DNA from: a virus
Taxonomy: Duplodnaviria; Heunggongvirae; Uroviricota; Caudoviricetes
Direction: 5' to 3' (one strand)
Length of the DNA: 9,648 nt
Virus record (IMG/VR): IMGVR_UViG_2609459830_000010
The translations under genes and the position numbers were made by a program. The notes beneath the pieces are model-generated. The model was not told the DNA's origin. It was given only the letters and a program-made list of their open reading frames with translations, and made no database searches. This document shows positions 1 to 5,815 of the stretch, in pieces (the first letter of the stretch is position 1; each line of letters opens with the position of its first letter).

Positions 1-297
1 TTGTCTTCTCTGGTTATGGGCTGTACGCAACATAAAACAGATATGCCCCGACAATTGGTGAAGGCATTACCACAATATCCGGCCTATGCAGCGGCAAATT
101 ATATAAAGGGACGGGTTGATGTGAAGTTTGATATTGGTGCTGATGGTACTGTCACCCGAATTGAGTTTATCCGTTCAGAGCCGCACCATCTGTTTGATGA
201 GCAGGTTGTAAAGGCGATGGCAAAATGGCGATTTGAGAAGGACAGGCCGCGTAAAGGCGTGAAGAAAACGTTTATCTTTAGTCCTTCTGCACCCTGA
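1..297 (+). CDS. Lipoprotein consisting of a TonB C-terminal domain; 5-prime partial, true start lies upstream of the window
   Basis: Reading frame is open from base 1 and stops at 295-297. Window residues 4-8 are L-V-M-G-C, a lipobox-like motif, so the signal peptide must start upstream. The remainder (ALPQYPAYAAANYIKGRVDVKFDIGADGTVTRIEFIRSEPHHLFDEQVVKAMAKWRFEK) aligns by eye with the E. coli TonB C-terminal domain as recalled from memory (QPQYPARAQALRIEGQVKVKFDV..DGRV.NVQIL.AKPANMFEREVKNAMRRWRYE). Confidence 0.7.
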   Translation: MSSLVMGCTQHKTDMPRQLVKALPQYPAYAAANYIKGRVDVKFDIGADGTVTRIEFIRSEPHHLFDEQVVKAMAKWRFEKDRPRKGVKKTFIFSPSAP

Positions 298-428
298 TTA
301 TTTCATCAGAAATTAATTATCACTCTGTTGTTATTCTGTACATCCCGGCTGGGTAAGTCTTGTTCCGCCGGGTATGAAGATGAAATATTGTTGGAGGACA
401 GTGGGTACCTGCTCCTGTAACCGAACGT

Positions 429-629
429 TCATTTCTCGTTATTTGTCATGCTGGCCGTACGCAGATGCGTTGCATCTGTTGCCAGCCTTCTCCTGCAGGC
501 TTCAATAACCCACGCTGAAAAGTTACCGGACCCTTTATGCTCAAGGGCGATGTTGATCTGTTCAATCATCTGGTTTGGAAATCGGATGTTGCGGGTTGTT
601 GTTCTGCGGGGCCGGTTTTTCGATGACAT
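429..629 (-). CDS. Arc/MetJ-type ribbon-helix-helix DNA-binding protein (66 aa)
   Basis: Minus-strand ORF with ATG at 629-627 preceded by GAGGAAAG about 6 nt upstream on the minus strand. Basic N-terminal tail, then RNIRFP (beta strand), NQMIEQINIALEHKG (helix A), SGN turn, FSAWVIEACRRRL (helix B); this matches the P22 Arc pattern FNLRWPREVLDLVRKVAEENGRSVNSEIYQRVMESF as recalled. Only minus-strand gene in the window; AT-richer than the structural genes. Confidence 0.55.
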   Translation of the reverse strand: MSSKNRPRRTTTRNIRFPNQMIEQINIALEHKGSGNFSAWVIEACRRRLATDATHLRTASMTNNEK

Positions 630-670
630 TTTCTTTCCTCTGGTGACAAGCTATATGGCGAGGATTTTAC

Positions 671-1036
671 ATGGCTGTGCTTCGTACGTTACCGGGCAGA
701 ATCAAAACTCTGAACACCCGGCGGGTGAATGTCCTGAAGGGTGAACAGCGTCGTGTCAGTGGCAGTGCACGTGTTTCCCTCAAGCGTCATATCTGGCTCA
801 GGGATGCCGGGCAGTGCTGTCTCTGTGGTCGTGTGGTTGACCTCTGTGACAGTGAACTCGATCACCGAATTGCACTTCAGTTCGGTGGTGGTAATGAGGA
901 GACGAATCTCTGGACGCTCTGTACCGAATGCCATCGACAAAAGTCTGCTCGTGAAGCGGCGGGTGGTATGCCTGATCCGACGTTGCCTGAGCTTCCTGAT
1001 GGCACGCTCAGGGCCGACGGAATCACTGGCCTGTGA
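671..1036 (+). CDS. HNH endonuclease, phage packaging-associated type
   Basis: ATG at 671 with GAGGA about 8 nt upstream; stop TGA 1034-1036. Contains CCLCG...LDHRIALQFGGGNEETNLWTLCTECHRQK, i.e. Cys pairs flanking a His...Asn...His core typical of HNH nucleases. Sits immediately upstream of the terminase genes, the classic HK97-like arrangement. Confidence 0.85.
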   Translation: MAVLRTLPGRIKTLNTRRVNVLKGEQRRVSGSARVSLKRHIWLRDAGQCCLCGRVVDLCDSELDHRIALQFGGGNEETNLWTLCTECHRQKSAREAAGGMPDPTLPELPDGTLRADGITGL

Positions 1037-1128
1037 CCAGACCCGGGGGGGATCATCCGGCGAAAAAAAAAAGATCGCTTTGGACACCGCGCCCCCTCTC
1101 ACGCAGAGAAAAAATTCCCGTTTCAGGG

Positions 1129-1146
1129 CAGTTAACATGTTAACTG
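1129..1146. repeat. 18-bp perfect palindrome CAGTTAACATGTTAACTG
   Basis: Read directly from the sequence; the reverse complement is identical. It contains two inverted copies of the ATGTTAAC core. Confidence 0.9.
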
Positions 1147-1202
1147 GCTGCCCGGGCATTTTTGCGGTTTTTATCTTTATTATTCAGTTTGTTGTGCGGA
1201 AA

Positions 1203-1254
1203 AAATGTTAACAGGCTTTTTCAGCAAATGTTAACCAGGCAGCAGTTAACATTT
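1203..1254. repeat. Three copies of the 10-bp motif AAATGTTAAC: two direct (1203-1212, 1226-1235) and one inverted (1245-1254, GTTAACATTT)
   Basis: Read directly from the sequence. The direct copies are 23 bp apart; the inverted copy shares GCAGTTAACAT with the left arm of the upstream palindrome. Confidence 0.85.
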
Positions 1255-1326
1255 GCGGCATGAGACGCCGGGAAAAATGGGCTGAACCATACCCGGCTGA
1301 GTGCGTTCTGGACCCGGGAGGAGGCT

Positions 1327-1890
1327 GTGCTGACAACGCAAAAACGAAAATTTGCGCTGGCGCTCATGTCCGGGAAAAACAAAACAGCGTCAGCCATTGC
1401 CGCCGGTTATTCGGCGAAGACCGCCAGGGTTAAAGGCTCGCAGCTGGCAAAAGATCCGGAGGTGCTCGCGTTTATAGCCCGTAAACAGTGCGAAACGGTG
1501 GAGGTGGATGAGGTTCCTGTTTACCGGCAGAAAAAATCAGAGCAGGAGGATAAACCCCGTCGCCGTGAGGCGGCTGCAATACCACAGCCGGACGAAAACA
1601 ATCCGGAGATGCCACCGCCCGCGGTGATGTCTCATGGTATTGAATATATGGAGGATGGTCTTCCCGATCCGGTGAAAGCTATGGGGCAGATCCTGGTGGA
1701 AAACCTCAGCATTGATCCGAAACTGGCACTGGATGCGGCCTGGCGACTGGCGCAGTTCACACACCATAAAAAAGGCGATGCCGGTAAAAAATCGGCAAAA
1801 GGTGATGCCGCGAAAAAAGCGGCTAACCGTTTTGCGGTACCACCACCACCACGACTGGTGGTGAATAACGATAATGAGGGCAACGGATGA
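1327..1890 (+). CDS. terS: Terminase small subunit, P27 family
   Basis: GTG start at 1327 preceded by GGGAGGAGG; N-terminus MLTTQKRKFALALMSGKNKTASAIAAGYSAKTARVKGSQLAKDPEVLAFI matches the P27-family small-terminase N-terminal DNA-binding region as recalled. Charged, Lys-rich C-terminal tail. Stop overlaps the terL start (ATGA at 1887-1890). Confidence 0.85.
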   Translation: MLTTQKRKFALALMSGKNKTASAIAAGYSAKTARVKGSQLAKDPEVLAFIARKQCETVEVDEVPVYRQKKSEQEDKPRRREAAAIPQPDENNPEMPPPAVMSHGIEYMEDGLPDPVKAMGQILVENLSIDPKLALDAAWRLAQFTHHKKGDAGKKSAKGDAAKKAANRFAVPPPPRLVVNNDNEGNG

Positions 1891-3611: not shown

Positions 3612-5549
3612 GTGACTCTTAAACGGGCCTGTTCCCTGCTGACGGTGAAATCCTTCAGTGAGGATGAACGGGTGATCACCGGGATTGCGTCAACGCCTTC
3701 TCCGGATCGGGATGGTGACATCCTGGAGCCGGAGGGCGCGGAGTTTGGCAGTGCGATCCCGTTTCTCTGGCAGCATGACCATTCCCGCCCGGTGGGGCAG
3801 TGTACGGTGCGCCGGGTCAGCGAAGGGCTGGAAATCACGGCAACACTGGTGAAGCCCGTACCGGATATGCCGTCGCAACTGGCTGCCCGGCTGGATGAGG
3901 TCTGGGCGGCCATTAAGACCGGGCTGGTCAGGGGGCTGTCCGTGGGCTTCCGTCCCCATGAATACACCTTTCTGGACGGAGGCGGACTGCATTTTCTGCG
4001 CTGGGAACTGATGGAGGTGTCTGCCGTCACCGTGCCCGCGAATGCGGAATGCACCATCCGGACCATTAAATCTTACGACCGCCCGTTTTCTGCCGCGTCC
4101 GGCAACCGGAAACCGGTGGTGAAAATCGCATCTTCTGCCGGCGCTGCGGCACAGTCAATAACCTCTTTTCATAAGGAAAAGTCAGCAATGAATACTGGTG
4201 AACAGATTAAAAGTTTTGAAAACAAGCGTGCGGCGCTGGCAGCCTCCCTTGAGGAGATCATGAACAAAGCCGCAGAGGAAGGCCGCACACTGGATGTGGA
4301 AGAGGAAGAGCACTACGACAACACCGCAGCGGAAATCCGTCAGGTGGATGCGCACCTGAAGCGTCTGCGTGAACTGGAAACCAGTAAGGCCGCCACGGCA
4401 CAGCCGGTGAAACAGGCCGGTAACGGGAATGTGGCCACGGTGGCTTCAGCGCCGGTGATCCGTGTTGAGCAGAAACTGGAGAAGGGGATTGGTTTCGCCC
4501 GCTTTGCCAAATCACTGGCCGCGGCTAAAGGTGTCCGCTCTGAAGCCCTGGAAGTGGCCCGTCGTCAGTATCCGGATGACAGCCGTCTGCATCATGTCCT
4601 GAAATCGGCGGTGGGGGCAGGGACCACCACGGACCCGCAGTGGGCAGGCAGCCTGTCTGAATATCAGGAATATGCGCAGGACTTTATTGATTACCTGCGT
4701 CCGCAGACCATTATCGGGCGATTTGGTCAGGGCGGGATCCCTGCACTTCGTCAGGTGCCGTTCAATATCCGCGTGCATGCCCAGGTGTCCGGCGGTGCTG
4801 CCGGCTGGGTGGGTGAGGGTAAGGCCAGACCCCTGACGAAGTTTGATTTTGAATCCATCACCTTCAGTCATGCGAAAGTGTCGGCCATTGCGGTACTGAC
4901 GGAAGAATTGATCCGTTTTTCCAGTCCGGCTGCTGATGCACTGGTCCGTAATGCGCTGGCGGAAGCGGTGGTGGCGCGTCTGGACACAGACTTTGTGGAC
5001 CCGAAAAAAGCCGCAGTGGCAGATGTCTCCCCGGCGTCCATCACCCATGATGTGAAGGGCACGGCATCAACCGGTAACCCGGATGCGGATGCCGAGGCCG
5101 CGTTTGGCCAGTTTGTGGCAGCAAACCTGCAGCCCACCGGTGCGGTCTGGCTGATGTCCAGCACCAATGCCCTGGCACTGTCCATGCGTAAAAATGCGCT
5201 GGGTCAGAAGGAATACCCGGACATGACCCTGCTGGGTGGCTCCTTCCAGGGGCTGCCGGTGATTGTCTCCCAGTACGTGGGTGACCAGCTGGTGCTGGTG
5301 AATGCCCCGGATATTTATCTGGCGGATGACGGCGGTGTGGCAGTGGATATGTCCCGTGAAGCGTCACTGGAAATGCAGTCTGAGCCGACCGGCGACAGCA
5401 CCACACCGTCCCCGGTGGAGCTGGTTTCCATGTTCCAGACCGGCAGCGTGGCCATCCGTGCGGAGCGCTGGATCAACTGGCGTCGTCGCCGTACCGCGGC
5501 GGTGGCGGTGATCACCGGTGTGAACTACGGCAGTGCGTCCGGCGGCTGA
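3612..5549 (+). CDS. Prohead protease (S78/HK97-type) fused to scaffold-like linker and HK97-fold major capsid protein
   Basis: GTG at 3612 with AGGAGG 5 nt upstream. N-terminal ~190 aa (ITGIASTPSPDRDGDIL...FLWQHDHSRPVGQ...GLSVGFRPHE...LMEVSAVTVPANAEC) matches the HK97 prohead protease pattern. Next comes a charged, helical, coiled-coil-like segment (EQIKSFENKRAALAASLEEIMNKAAEEGRTLDVEEEEHYDNTAAEIRQVDAHLKRLRELE) resembling a delta/scaffold domain, then a ~400-aa capsid-like region (LRPQTIIGRFGQGG...VPFN...). All are in one frame with no stop. Confidence 0.85.
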   Translation: MTLKRACSLLTVKSFSEDERVITGIASTPSPDRDGDILEPEGAEFGSAIPFLWQHDHSRPVGQCTVRRVSEGLEITATLVKPVPDMPSQLAARLDEVWAAIKTGLVRGLSVGFRPHEYTFLDGGGLHFLRWELMEVSAVTVPANAECTIRTIKSYDRPFSAASGNRKPVVKIASSAGAAAQSITSFHKEKSAMNTGEQIKSFENKRAALAASLEEIMNKAAEEGRTLDVEEEEHYDNTAAEIRQVDAHLKRLRELETSKAATAQPVKQAGNGNVATVASAPVIRVEQKLEKGIGFARFAKSLAAAKGVRSEALEVARRQYPDDSRLHHVLKSAVGAGTTTDPQWAGSLSEYQEYAQDFIDYLRPQTIIGRFGQGGIPALRQVPFNIRVHAQVSGGAAGWVGEGKARPLTKFDFESITFSHAKVSAIAVLTEELIRFSSPAADALVRNALAEAVVARLDTDFVDPKKAAVADVSPASITHDVKGTASTGNPDADAEAAFGQFVAANLQPTGAVWLMSSTNALALSMRKNALGQKEYPDMTLLGGSFQGLPVIVSQYVGDQLVLVNAPDIYLADDGGVAVDMSREASLEMQSEPTGDSTTPSPVELVSMFQTGSVAIRAERWINWRRRRTAAVAVITGVNYGSASGG

Positions 5550-5593: not shown

Positions 5594-5815
5594 ATGGCAA
5601 AAATCCGATATCTGCAGGGCACGCATGATGCCCGGGCCGGGGATATCCGTGATGTGGCACAGCCGTGTGCGGAGGTGCTGGTTCGCCTGGGGAAGGCGGA
5701 GTACATCACAGCGCGACGTCCGGCAGGTCAGAAAAAGAAACGTGATGCGGAGCATGGCGAATGTGGAACCTTTTGCGGCGAACCCGAAAAAACCAGAAAT
5801 CAGGACGTGACGTAA
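5594..5815 (+). CDS. Hypothetical small protein (73 aa), uncertain
   Basis: ORF between the capsid stop and the portal gene, overlapping the annotated portal start by 55 nt in another frame. No convincing Shine-Dalgarno directly upstream; a purine-rich GAGGAGGGCGGGAGG lies about 25 nt upstream. The N-terminal part looks protein-like (MAKIRYLQGTHDARAGDIRDVAQPCAEVLVRLGKAEYI). Confidence 0.25.
   Translation: MAKIRYLQGTHDARAGDIRDVAQPCAEVLVRLGKAEYITARRPAGQKKKRDAEHGECGTFCGEPEKTRNQDVT

Follow-up and report, generated by a model that had tools for sequence, protein, structure and literature searches.

A conserved antisense gene of the YlcI/YnfO family at the lysis-packaging junction of a lambdoid prophage, encoding a likely ribbon-helix-helix protein

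The stretch of DNA analysed here (the window) comprises 9,648 nucleotides of IMG/VR record IMGVR_UViG_2609459830_000010, assigned to the Caudoviricetes, which judged from its sequence is the late region of a lambdoid, Shiga toxin (Stx)-type Escherichia coli prophage. Its minus strand carries a small gene that had been proposed, in a sequence-only reading, to encode an orphan Arc-like ribbon-helix-helix (RHH) protein transcribed divergently from an operon for an HNH endonuclease and the terminase. We find that this is a real, conserved gene and a catalogued member of the common, uncharacterised YlcI/YnfO prophage family. The translated 66-codon open reading frame (ORF), read from its ATG as MSSKNRPRRTTTRNIRFPNQMIEQINIALEHKGSGNFSAWVIEACRRRLATDATHLRTASMTNNEK, matched Pfam DUF3950 (PF13132) over residues 21-50 with an E-value of 4.3e-20 and 71.7 bits (cutoff 25), NCBIfam NF041551 (YlcI_YnfO_N) with 35.5 bits against a cutoff of 30, and phrog_949 from end to end (E 7.9e-33), and an annotated gene in E. 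coli NZ_CP180607 is 100% identical to it over 201 nt. The gene, its parts and its neighbours are located in Table 1.

Table 1. Coordinates of the YlcI/YnfO family gene, its predicted parts and its neighbours in the window
Feature	Position	Strand	Basis or remark
TonB_C lipoprotein gene	1-297	+	true start 30 nt beyond the left edge
Spacer between the convergent 3' ends of the TonB-like gene and the family gene	298-428	.	no conserved toxin gene, no consensus terminator
Coding sequence of the 66-residue YlcI/YnfO family (DUF3950) protein	429-629	-	stop codon 429-431; ORF list, family matches, identical annotated copy
Variable hydrophilic C-terminal tail, residues 51-66	432-479	-	predicted local distance difference test (pLDDT) score < 60; swapped among phage lineages
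Conserved core, codons 1-50, with basic N-terminal arm	480-629	-	only part common with lambda, ylcI and ynfO; DNA alignment from the ATG to about codon 50
Predicted helix B, residues 37-50, after the loop GSGNFS; motif NFSAWVIEAC	480-521	-	AlphaFold helix 37-58; Pfam DUF3950 match
Predicted helix A, residues 19-32	534-575	-	AlphaFold, block pLDDT 70-81
Predicted ribbon strand TRNIRFP, residues 12-18	576-596	-	AlphaFold extended segment; hhalign register against Arc
Spacer between the divergent start codons of the family gene and the HNH gene	630-670	.	41 bp; no consensus promoter in scan
Shine-Dalgarno sequence GAGGA	636-640	-	sequence reading; 7 nt from the ATG
HNH endonuclease gene	671-1036	+	ORF list, library matches
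290-bp gap with clustered GTTAAC sites	between HNH and terminase small subunit		
Terminase small subunit (TerS) gene, Terminase_2 type	1327-1890	+	ORF list, library matches

Comparison of the window with lambda over codons 1-50 yielded 20 synonymous and 5 non-synonymous differences, a ratio of non-synonymous to synonymous change (pN/pS) of 0.07 that denotes strong purifying selection, and across lineages the ratio lies between 0.07 and 0.15. The start codon and the strong ribosome-binding site are kept as well; as the sequence-only reading had noted, this site is a good one, the minus strand 5' of the start reading CACCAGAGGAAAGAAA-ATG with GAGGA ending 7 nt before it. Members of the family are proteins of about 50-80 residues with the motif IRF(P)...NFSAWV.(E/D)AC, which is present in the window protein and is kept across Enterobacterales down to 36% identity, and in an alignment of 30 members that includes the window protein R16, I25, F37, W40, V41 and C45 are invariant. 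Although no strong promoter was found and the lambda RefSeq record leaves the homolog without annotation, both of which would suit an ORF that does not function as a protein, so that an antisense transcript matters or nothing does, the selection on the reading frame, the conserved start and ribosome-binding site and the retained motif make that explanation extremely improbable.

The fold of the product was assessed by modelling and by profile comparison. AlphaFold, given a 20-sequence alignment, placed an extended segment at residues 12-18, a helix at 19-32, the loop GSGNFS and a second helix at 37-58, which is a strand-helix-helix topology with a G-x-(S/T/N)-type turn before helix B. A Foldseek search of the PDB returned NikR, Arc, ParD, NikA, MazE9 and ORF56, all of them RHH proteins, at the top of the list with E-values of at least 0.8, and a BFVD fold search gave weak matches only, with RHH proteins among the named ones. 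The best PDB sequence-profile match was to the CopG-family RHH protein 9kkd, aligned in register with E 0.55; phmmer and two profile searches of the PDB sequences returned nothing significant by way of a solved relative, a larger profile returned none, and 0 of 30 diverse family members matched the Pfam RHH models at E <= 10. When the trimmed family core was compared with an alignment of the Arc family in hhalign, the score was 21.6 (P 2e-4, probability 46%), against 8.9 +/- 2.4 in a column-shuffle control in which none of 200 shuffles reached 21.6; the homolog search for Arc gave close relatives only, which lowered the power of this comparison. The alignment sets NIRFPNQMIEQI against Arc NLRWPKEVLDLV, with NIRFP in register with NLRWP, and thereby places T12, N14 and R16 on Q9, N11 and R13 of Arc, the residues with which Arc contacts DNA. 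Taken together, the model and the profiles make an RHH fold likely, not proven. The Arc/Mnt-like strand-helix-helix layout that had been read from the sequence is thus borne out by the predicted order of elements and by best structural and profile matches that are RHH proteins, Arc included; the term Arc-like is fair for the layout, and membership of the Arc family is not established.

The family gene is widespread in E. coli, where it was found at 9,569 places in 4,184 of 5,426 complete genomes (77%), with up to 12 copies per genome. A 1.4-kb module of the window recurs at 94-98% identity in Stx1a/Stx2 phages and in some 400 E. coli genomes, with the RefSeq order TonB family protein, YlcI/YnfO family protein, HNH endonuclease and terminase small subunit. 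Every annotated relative has the gene standing alone in antisense orientation, with the lysis cassette on one side and the terminase genes on the other. Strain K-12 carries ylcI in DLP12 and ynfO in Qin, each divergent from a Nu1-type nohD or nohA over 388 bp, and both of these decayed prophages retain intact family copies. Under ordinary conditions K-12 transcribes ylcI, which is listed together with ybcW as a convergent excludon that appears in at least 50% of RNA-seq samples (PMC12288877). The divergence from the packaging module that had been remarked upon in the window is therefore a recurrent placement, found again in lambda, in DLP12 and Qin and in the Stx phages.

In lambda (NC_001416.1) a 64-codon homolog whose protein is identical to YlcI lies on the minus strand at 48109-48303, about 200 bp from the right cohesive end; the RefSeq feature table of lambda does not list it, and other lambda-like records call it hypothetical or a YlcI/YnfO family protein. 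All lambda-type loci have cosN (GGGCGGCGACCT) at a distance of 199-211 bp upstream of the gene, whereas in the window type the HNH gene stands between the gene and the likely cos, and the record of a related phage stops at about position 1097 of the window. Placement as the last antisense gene before cos and the packaging genes accordingly recurs with two unrelated terminase types. Matches also turned up in many assemblies from unrelated organisms, among them Streptomyces, Cohnella, Pseudomonas and Flavobacterium, where the gene sits 190-390 bp from the end of a contig measuring about 3.5 kb or 48.5 kb. These look like contamination with lambda control DNA, and the homolog near cos in lambda explains the dozens of matches in unrelated genomes. 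Lambda also has, at 48450-48465 (and L002 from 4593), the sequence GATGATAATCATTATC between cosQ and the ylcI-like ORF, within a 19-mer of which 16 positions agree with the Fur-box consensus GATAATGATAATCATTATC; no Fur-box-like site of the lambda type was found in the window.

Outside the first 50 codons there is little that the two types hold in common. Homology between the HNH-type and lambda-type loci is limited to codons 1-50; the tail and the DNA on either side of the gene are different, and three types of C-terminal tail were distinguished (that of the window, that of lambda and ylcI, and that of ynfO). These mosaic junctions speak for the separate acquisition suggested in the sequence-only reading, whereas base composition, on which that suggestion had rested, does not support it: at 49.3% GC the gene is indeed AT-richer than the HNH gene (56.3%) and the terminase genes (53.9-57.8%), but not AT-richer than the TonB-like gene (46.1%).

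Within the window the gene is, as claimed, the only one on the minus strand, since the remaining long minus-strand ORFs lie opposite plus-strand genes whose matches to terminase, capsid or portal are strong. The lone ORF of this kind with a PHROG match of its own (phrog_1487) lies at 689-1159 on the minus strand, opposite the HNH gene. It was rejected as a second minus-strand gene because, of its 14 variable sites, 10 are third codon positions in the HNH frame, which identifies HNH as the frame under selection. phrog_1487 itself probably gathers mis-annotated antisense ORFs.

A scan of one genome per species recovered standalone homologs, 36-59% identical, across Enterobacterales, in settings unconnected with terminase. 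The family is represented, without a terminase nearby, in satellites resembling phage-inducible chromosomal islands (PICIs), in Salmonella pathogenicity island 5 (SPI-5) and in chromosomal islets. Homologs in Serratia and Pectobacterium adjoin a P4-type integrase, that of Leminorella adjoins a SymE-family toxin gene, that of Brenneria is near TraG, those of Pantoea follow an ABC transporter or a TonB-dependent receptor, and that of Tatumella lies between metabolic genes; across 40 other loci neither a conserved neighbour nor a consistent toxin gene was found. In Salmonella arizonae and diarizonae (L043 and L044, about 5001-5171) the gene lies between a sopB/ipgD effector gene and a C69 peptidase gene (pipD-like), on the opposite strand to both, and this member sits inside what looks like SPI-5.

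Further members occur in PICI-like satellites of the order int-alpA-...-primase, and YlcI/YnfO is listed among the accessory genes of capsid-forming PICIs (cf-PICIs) in a 2026 survey (PMC13612085). In these islands, too, the family gene alone occupies the opposite strand, here divergent from the primase operon, and in most of 14 islands the 160 nt upstream of it contain 2-5 GTG-N6-CAC palindromes, often near -100, -76 and -30, against a chance expectation of 0.04. The same region has TTGACG on the opposite strand and a TATAGT-like -10 element on the gene's own strand, and the palindromes have the look of operators at a pair of divergent promoters. Three to five palindromes per 160 nt were counted in L045, L046, L049, L061, L062, L066, L068 and L085, with a GC-rich hairpin and then a T-run preceding the arrays. 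The residues of the predicted reading strand differ between the E. coli phage type and the island type, and a C4/IsrK immunity RNA was sought upstream of the island-type genes with no Rfam match.

Additionally, five proteins of 123-142 residues and 48-86% mutual identity, among them P0189, P0224, P0225 and P0227, fuse DUF3950 to the N-terminal helix-turn-helix (HTH) of a Terminase_2 TerS. In P0189, residues 1-48 are 45% identical to the window family protein and residues 76-125 are 62% identical to residues 2-51 of the window TerS. The fusions occupy the position of the standalone gene in related islands; their genes (L085 4714-5103; L086 8001-8429) lie between int-alpA and the primase operon, and the L086 satellite appears to be embedded among prophage late genes. 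By analogy with Rpp (compared below), such a TerS-HTH fusion could interfere with helper packaging. For the window gene itself we take the satellite fusions as a Rosetta-stone hint and not as evidence.

The sequence-only reading had called the gene an orphan because no cognate toxin gene adjoins it, and this description stands: the only overlapping small ORF shows no sign of selection and the next gene is convergent. That ORF, of 33 codons at 331-432 on the minus strand, overlaps the stop of the family gene as ATGA, an arrangement that would suit a toxin; it is not a gene, because 5 of 5 substitutions among relatives change its amino acids. A type II toxin-antitoxin system was rejected on these grounds. 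In the convergent spacer no terminator-like site was found by scan, the fold z-score being only -1.85, and Rfam gave no match in window positions 1-1500. An alternative is that the protein is an orphan RHH antitoxin directed against a toxin encoded elsewhere, for example in a toxin-antitoxin or abortive-infection system of the host or of a rival phage, given that its closest structural matches include the RHH antitoxins TacA, ParD, MazE9 and VapB and that the Leminorella relative adjoins a toxin gene. We hold this to be very doubtful, since the window has no co-transcribed toxin and the 40 other loci have none consistently, since a short C-terminal tail that varies and has been exchanged among lineages does not resemble a toxin-binding domain, and since PADLOC returned no match for the protein.

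The sequence-only reading had also found the arrangement suited to a repressor that gates the late packaging genes or regulates itself; as a gate, the protein would act at overlapping divergent promoters or at the GTTAAC repeats. RHH repressors such as Arc and Mnt do act at divergent promoters, and the spacing that had been estimated at about 40 bp is confirmed, the HNH ORF beginning at 671; the PICI-like islands, too, place operator-like repeats between the family gene and a divergent operon. Nevertheless, no sigma-70-like site was found in or near 630-670 on either strand. What the minus strand offers there are weak -10-like hexamers, TATAGC (650-655) and TAAAAT (664-669), each without a matching -35 element, and no repeats were found in 630-670. 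Furthermore, in all relatives the HNH and terminase genes point the same way as the lysis genes upstream of them, and indeed the genes from holin through head run in one direction in all annotated relatives. The proposed gating by overlapping promoters is not supported.

The lambda-type loci provide a second test of where the protein might act. The HNH-type and lambda/Nu1-type arrangements have one and the same predicted DNA-reading segment, RRTTTRNIRFPNQ, yet their upstream regions share 8 common 8-mers against about 8 expected, and zero 9-mers, which is chance level. TAACGTA was considered as a common operator and rejected, since its occurrence at -62 and -58 in the two upstream types is not significant. 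Five of the six GTTAAC sites of the window cluster at 1131-1250, between the HNH and TerS genes, mostly as ATGTTAAC in direct and inverted orientation, in what is probably the cos and TerS-binding region. As an RHH target this cluster was rejected because it is missing from the lambda-type region, where the reading segment is identical. No GTTAAC cluster was found beside the satellite fusion genes either, those of L086 lying elsewhere, near prophage TerS and HNH genes. A target in the adjacent DNA, whether 630-670 or the GTTAAC cluster, is therefore disfavoured. Since, in addition, lambda-type phages have cosN between the gene and Nu1 and the family occurs in satellites, SPI-5 and other islands without a terminase nearby, we regard a gate on packaging-operon transcription as very improbable.

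The constancy of the position invites another explanation, in which the protein is a cos-proximal packaging or DNA-end factor that helps, times or blocks terminase or acts on the first-entering end, with satellites having fused the TerS domain to it to interfere with helper packaging. Consistent with this, the gene is always found beside cos in E. coli phages, whether their terminase is of the one type or of the other, unrelated type; cosN is at its short, near-constant distance upstream in the lambda type and only the HNH gene separates gene from cos in the window, and the satellite proteins join DUF3950 to an HTH of the very TerS class found in the window. However, the gene is antisense to late transcription, which makes co-expression with terminase unlikely, and lambda packaging has been reconstituted without any such factor. 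The two cos regions have no common DNA motif, the family is present where there is neither cos nor terminase, including SPI-5 and chromosomal islets, and two fused DNA-binding modules need not imply a common pathway. We consider this explanation unlikely, and a cos- or packaging-related role overall no likelier. A somewhat more tentative form is that the cos-proximal position is itself functional: the RHH protein would exert its effect at or close to the cohesive-end site or the DNA end that enters first, for example by modulating access of terminase or TerS, blocking the packaging of a rival or satellite, or acting right after injection, and the satellite fusions would exploit this link.

The reading that we prefer, at a probability of roughly 0.5, is that the gene encodes a small, basic RHH (Arc/CopG-type) DNA-binding regulator, carried as an autonomous cassette with its own weak promoter and autorepressing, whose main target is not the adjacent HNH-terminase region. 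Two chains would pair their N-terminal TRNIRFP strands to form a two-stranded ribbon for reading the major groove of DNA, while the basic arm at the N-terminus, together with the N-terminal end of helix B, would hold the backbone. The cassette would be lodged where lysis genes and cos meet in lambdoid phages, pointing counter to the late genes, which run from lysis through packaging to head. Lambdoid late genes form one operon read from pR' far upstream. Because the gene opposes this flow, we infer that it is expressed mainly when late transcription is off, and its weak promoter would then probably be active in lysogeny or early infection; the protein probably represses this promoter. In favour of the reading stand the family membership and the selection, the recurrent lone antisense placement between lysis and packaging genes, the transcription of ylcI in K-12, the survival of intact copies in DLP12 and Qin, and the operator-like arrays of the islands.

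Several observations weigh against this regulator. The AlphaFold model has a mean pLDDT of 68, and a tandem head-to-tail single-chain construct built to mimic the dimer, folded without an alignment, reached a pLDDT of 46 and showed no strands. A scan found no promoter or operator adjoining the gene in either the window or lambda. The GTG-N6-CAC array of the islands does not recur in the E. coli phage type (0 in lambda, 1 upstream of the window gene, at -141) and could be bound by another protein, such as AlpA. Finally, the literature searched yielded neither direct data on the expression or DNA binding of a family member nor any functional study of the YlcI/YnfO family.

Among known proteins the closest are the YlcI and YnfO proteins of the K-12 prophages DLP12 and Qin and the lambda ORF, whose first 50 residues are about 90% identical to those of the window protein, with the same NFSAWVIEAC, and whose genes are likewise lone antisense genes between the lysis and packaging genes, divergent from TerS. 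They differ in the right neighbour, which is cos and a Nu1-type TerS in place of the HNH endonuclease and Terminase_2-type TerS of the window, as well as in the C-terminal tail and all flanking DNA. Arc of Salmonella phage P22 (Arc/Mnt, PF03869) is also a small phage protein with the same order of strand and helices, in which NIRFP falls on NLRWP and hence N14 and R16 on N11 and R13, and its gene is also embedded among late genes as its own transcription unit. In contrast to Arc, the window protein has no Pfam Arc match, the similarity being marginal, its helix B motif with an invariant Trp and Cys is specific to the YlcI/YnfO family, and its gene is without a flanking antirepressor gene (ant) or an Arc-type operator. 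A module of the Arc/Mnt immunity-I type was rejected because there is no flanking ant gene and no promoter-like site or repeat in 630-670, where lambda-type relatives have cos. TacA (DUF1778), ParD, CopG and the N-terminal domains of NikR and PutA resemble the protein as the best structural matches to the model.

The Rpp proteins of Gram-negative PICIs are small satellite DNA-binding proteins with a winged helix-turn-helix, related to the DNA-binding domain of the helper TerS (PMC6739421). They are comparable in that the DUF3950-TerS-HTH fusions sit in similar satellites, and they differ in having a winged helix-turn-helix and not an RHH fold, while the window protein has no TerS-like part. 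Identity with an Rpp or another TerS-like redirector was rejected accordingly, the window protein having no Terminase_2 or HTH match; among its relatives a TerS HTH is confined to the satellite fusions.

The remainder of the window agrees with a late region. The lipoprotein gene at its left edge, at 46% GC the most AT-rich gene of the window, follows the lysis cassette and encodes a lipobox (LVMGC) and a TonB C-terminal domain; PHROGs labels its family 'Rz-like spanin'. TerS is followed by genes for the terminase large subunit, a protease-capsid fusion, the portal and head-tail connectors. The ORFs at 5761-7125 and 7122-8183, which overlap by ATGA, both match one 859-position portal PHROG, and NCBI calls the homolog 'frameshifted' in one genome. 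The second of these ORFs contains internal repeats of about 55 residues (PVPADGKS.TPDDVRPMLEQMV...PRDGRDYDP.VL).

In itself the finding is an ordinary one, in that the gene is a catalogued member of a family carried by 77% of complete E. coli genomes. The family has nevertheless been without an assigned fold or function, although it is present in lambda, in two K-12 prophages and in most Stx phages. By-products of the analysis are a likely fold for DUF3950, the cos-side homolog of lambda, the satellite fusions and the operator-like arrays of the islands, of which the last two supply concrete hypotheses. If the cos-acting version were true, an RHH protein encoded by lambda itself would be an unrecognised player in both lambda-type and HK97-type packaging. 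An RHH assignment makes the family cheaply testable in the best-understood of phage systems.
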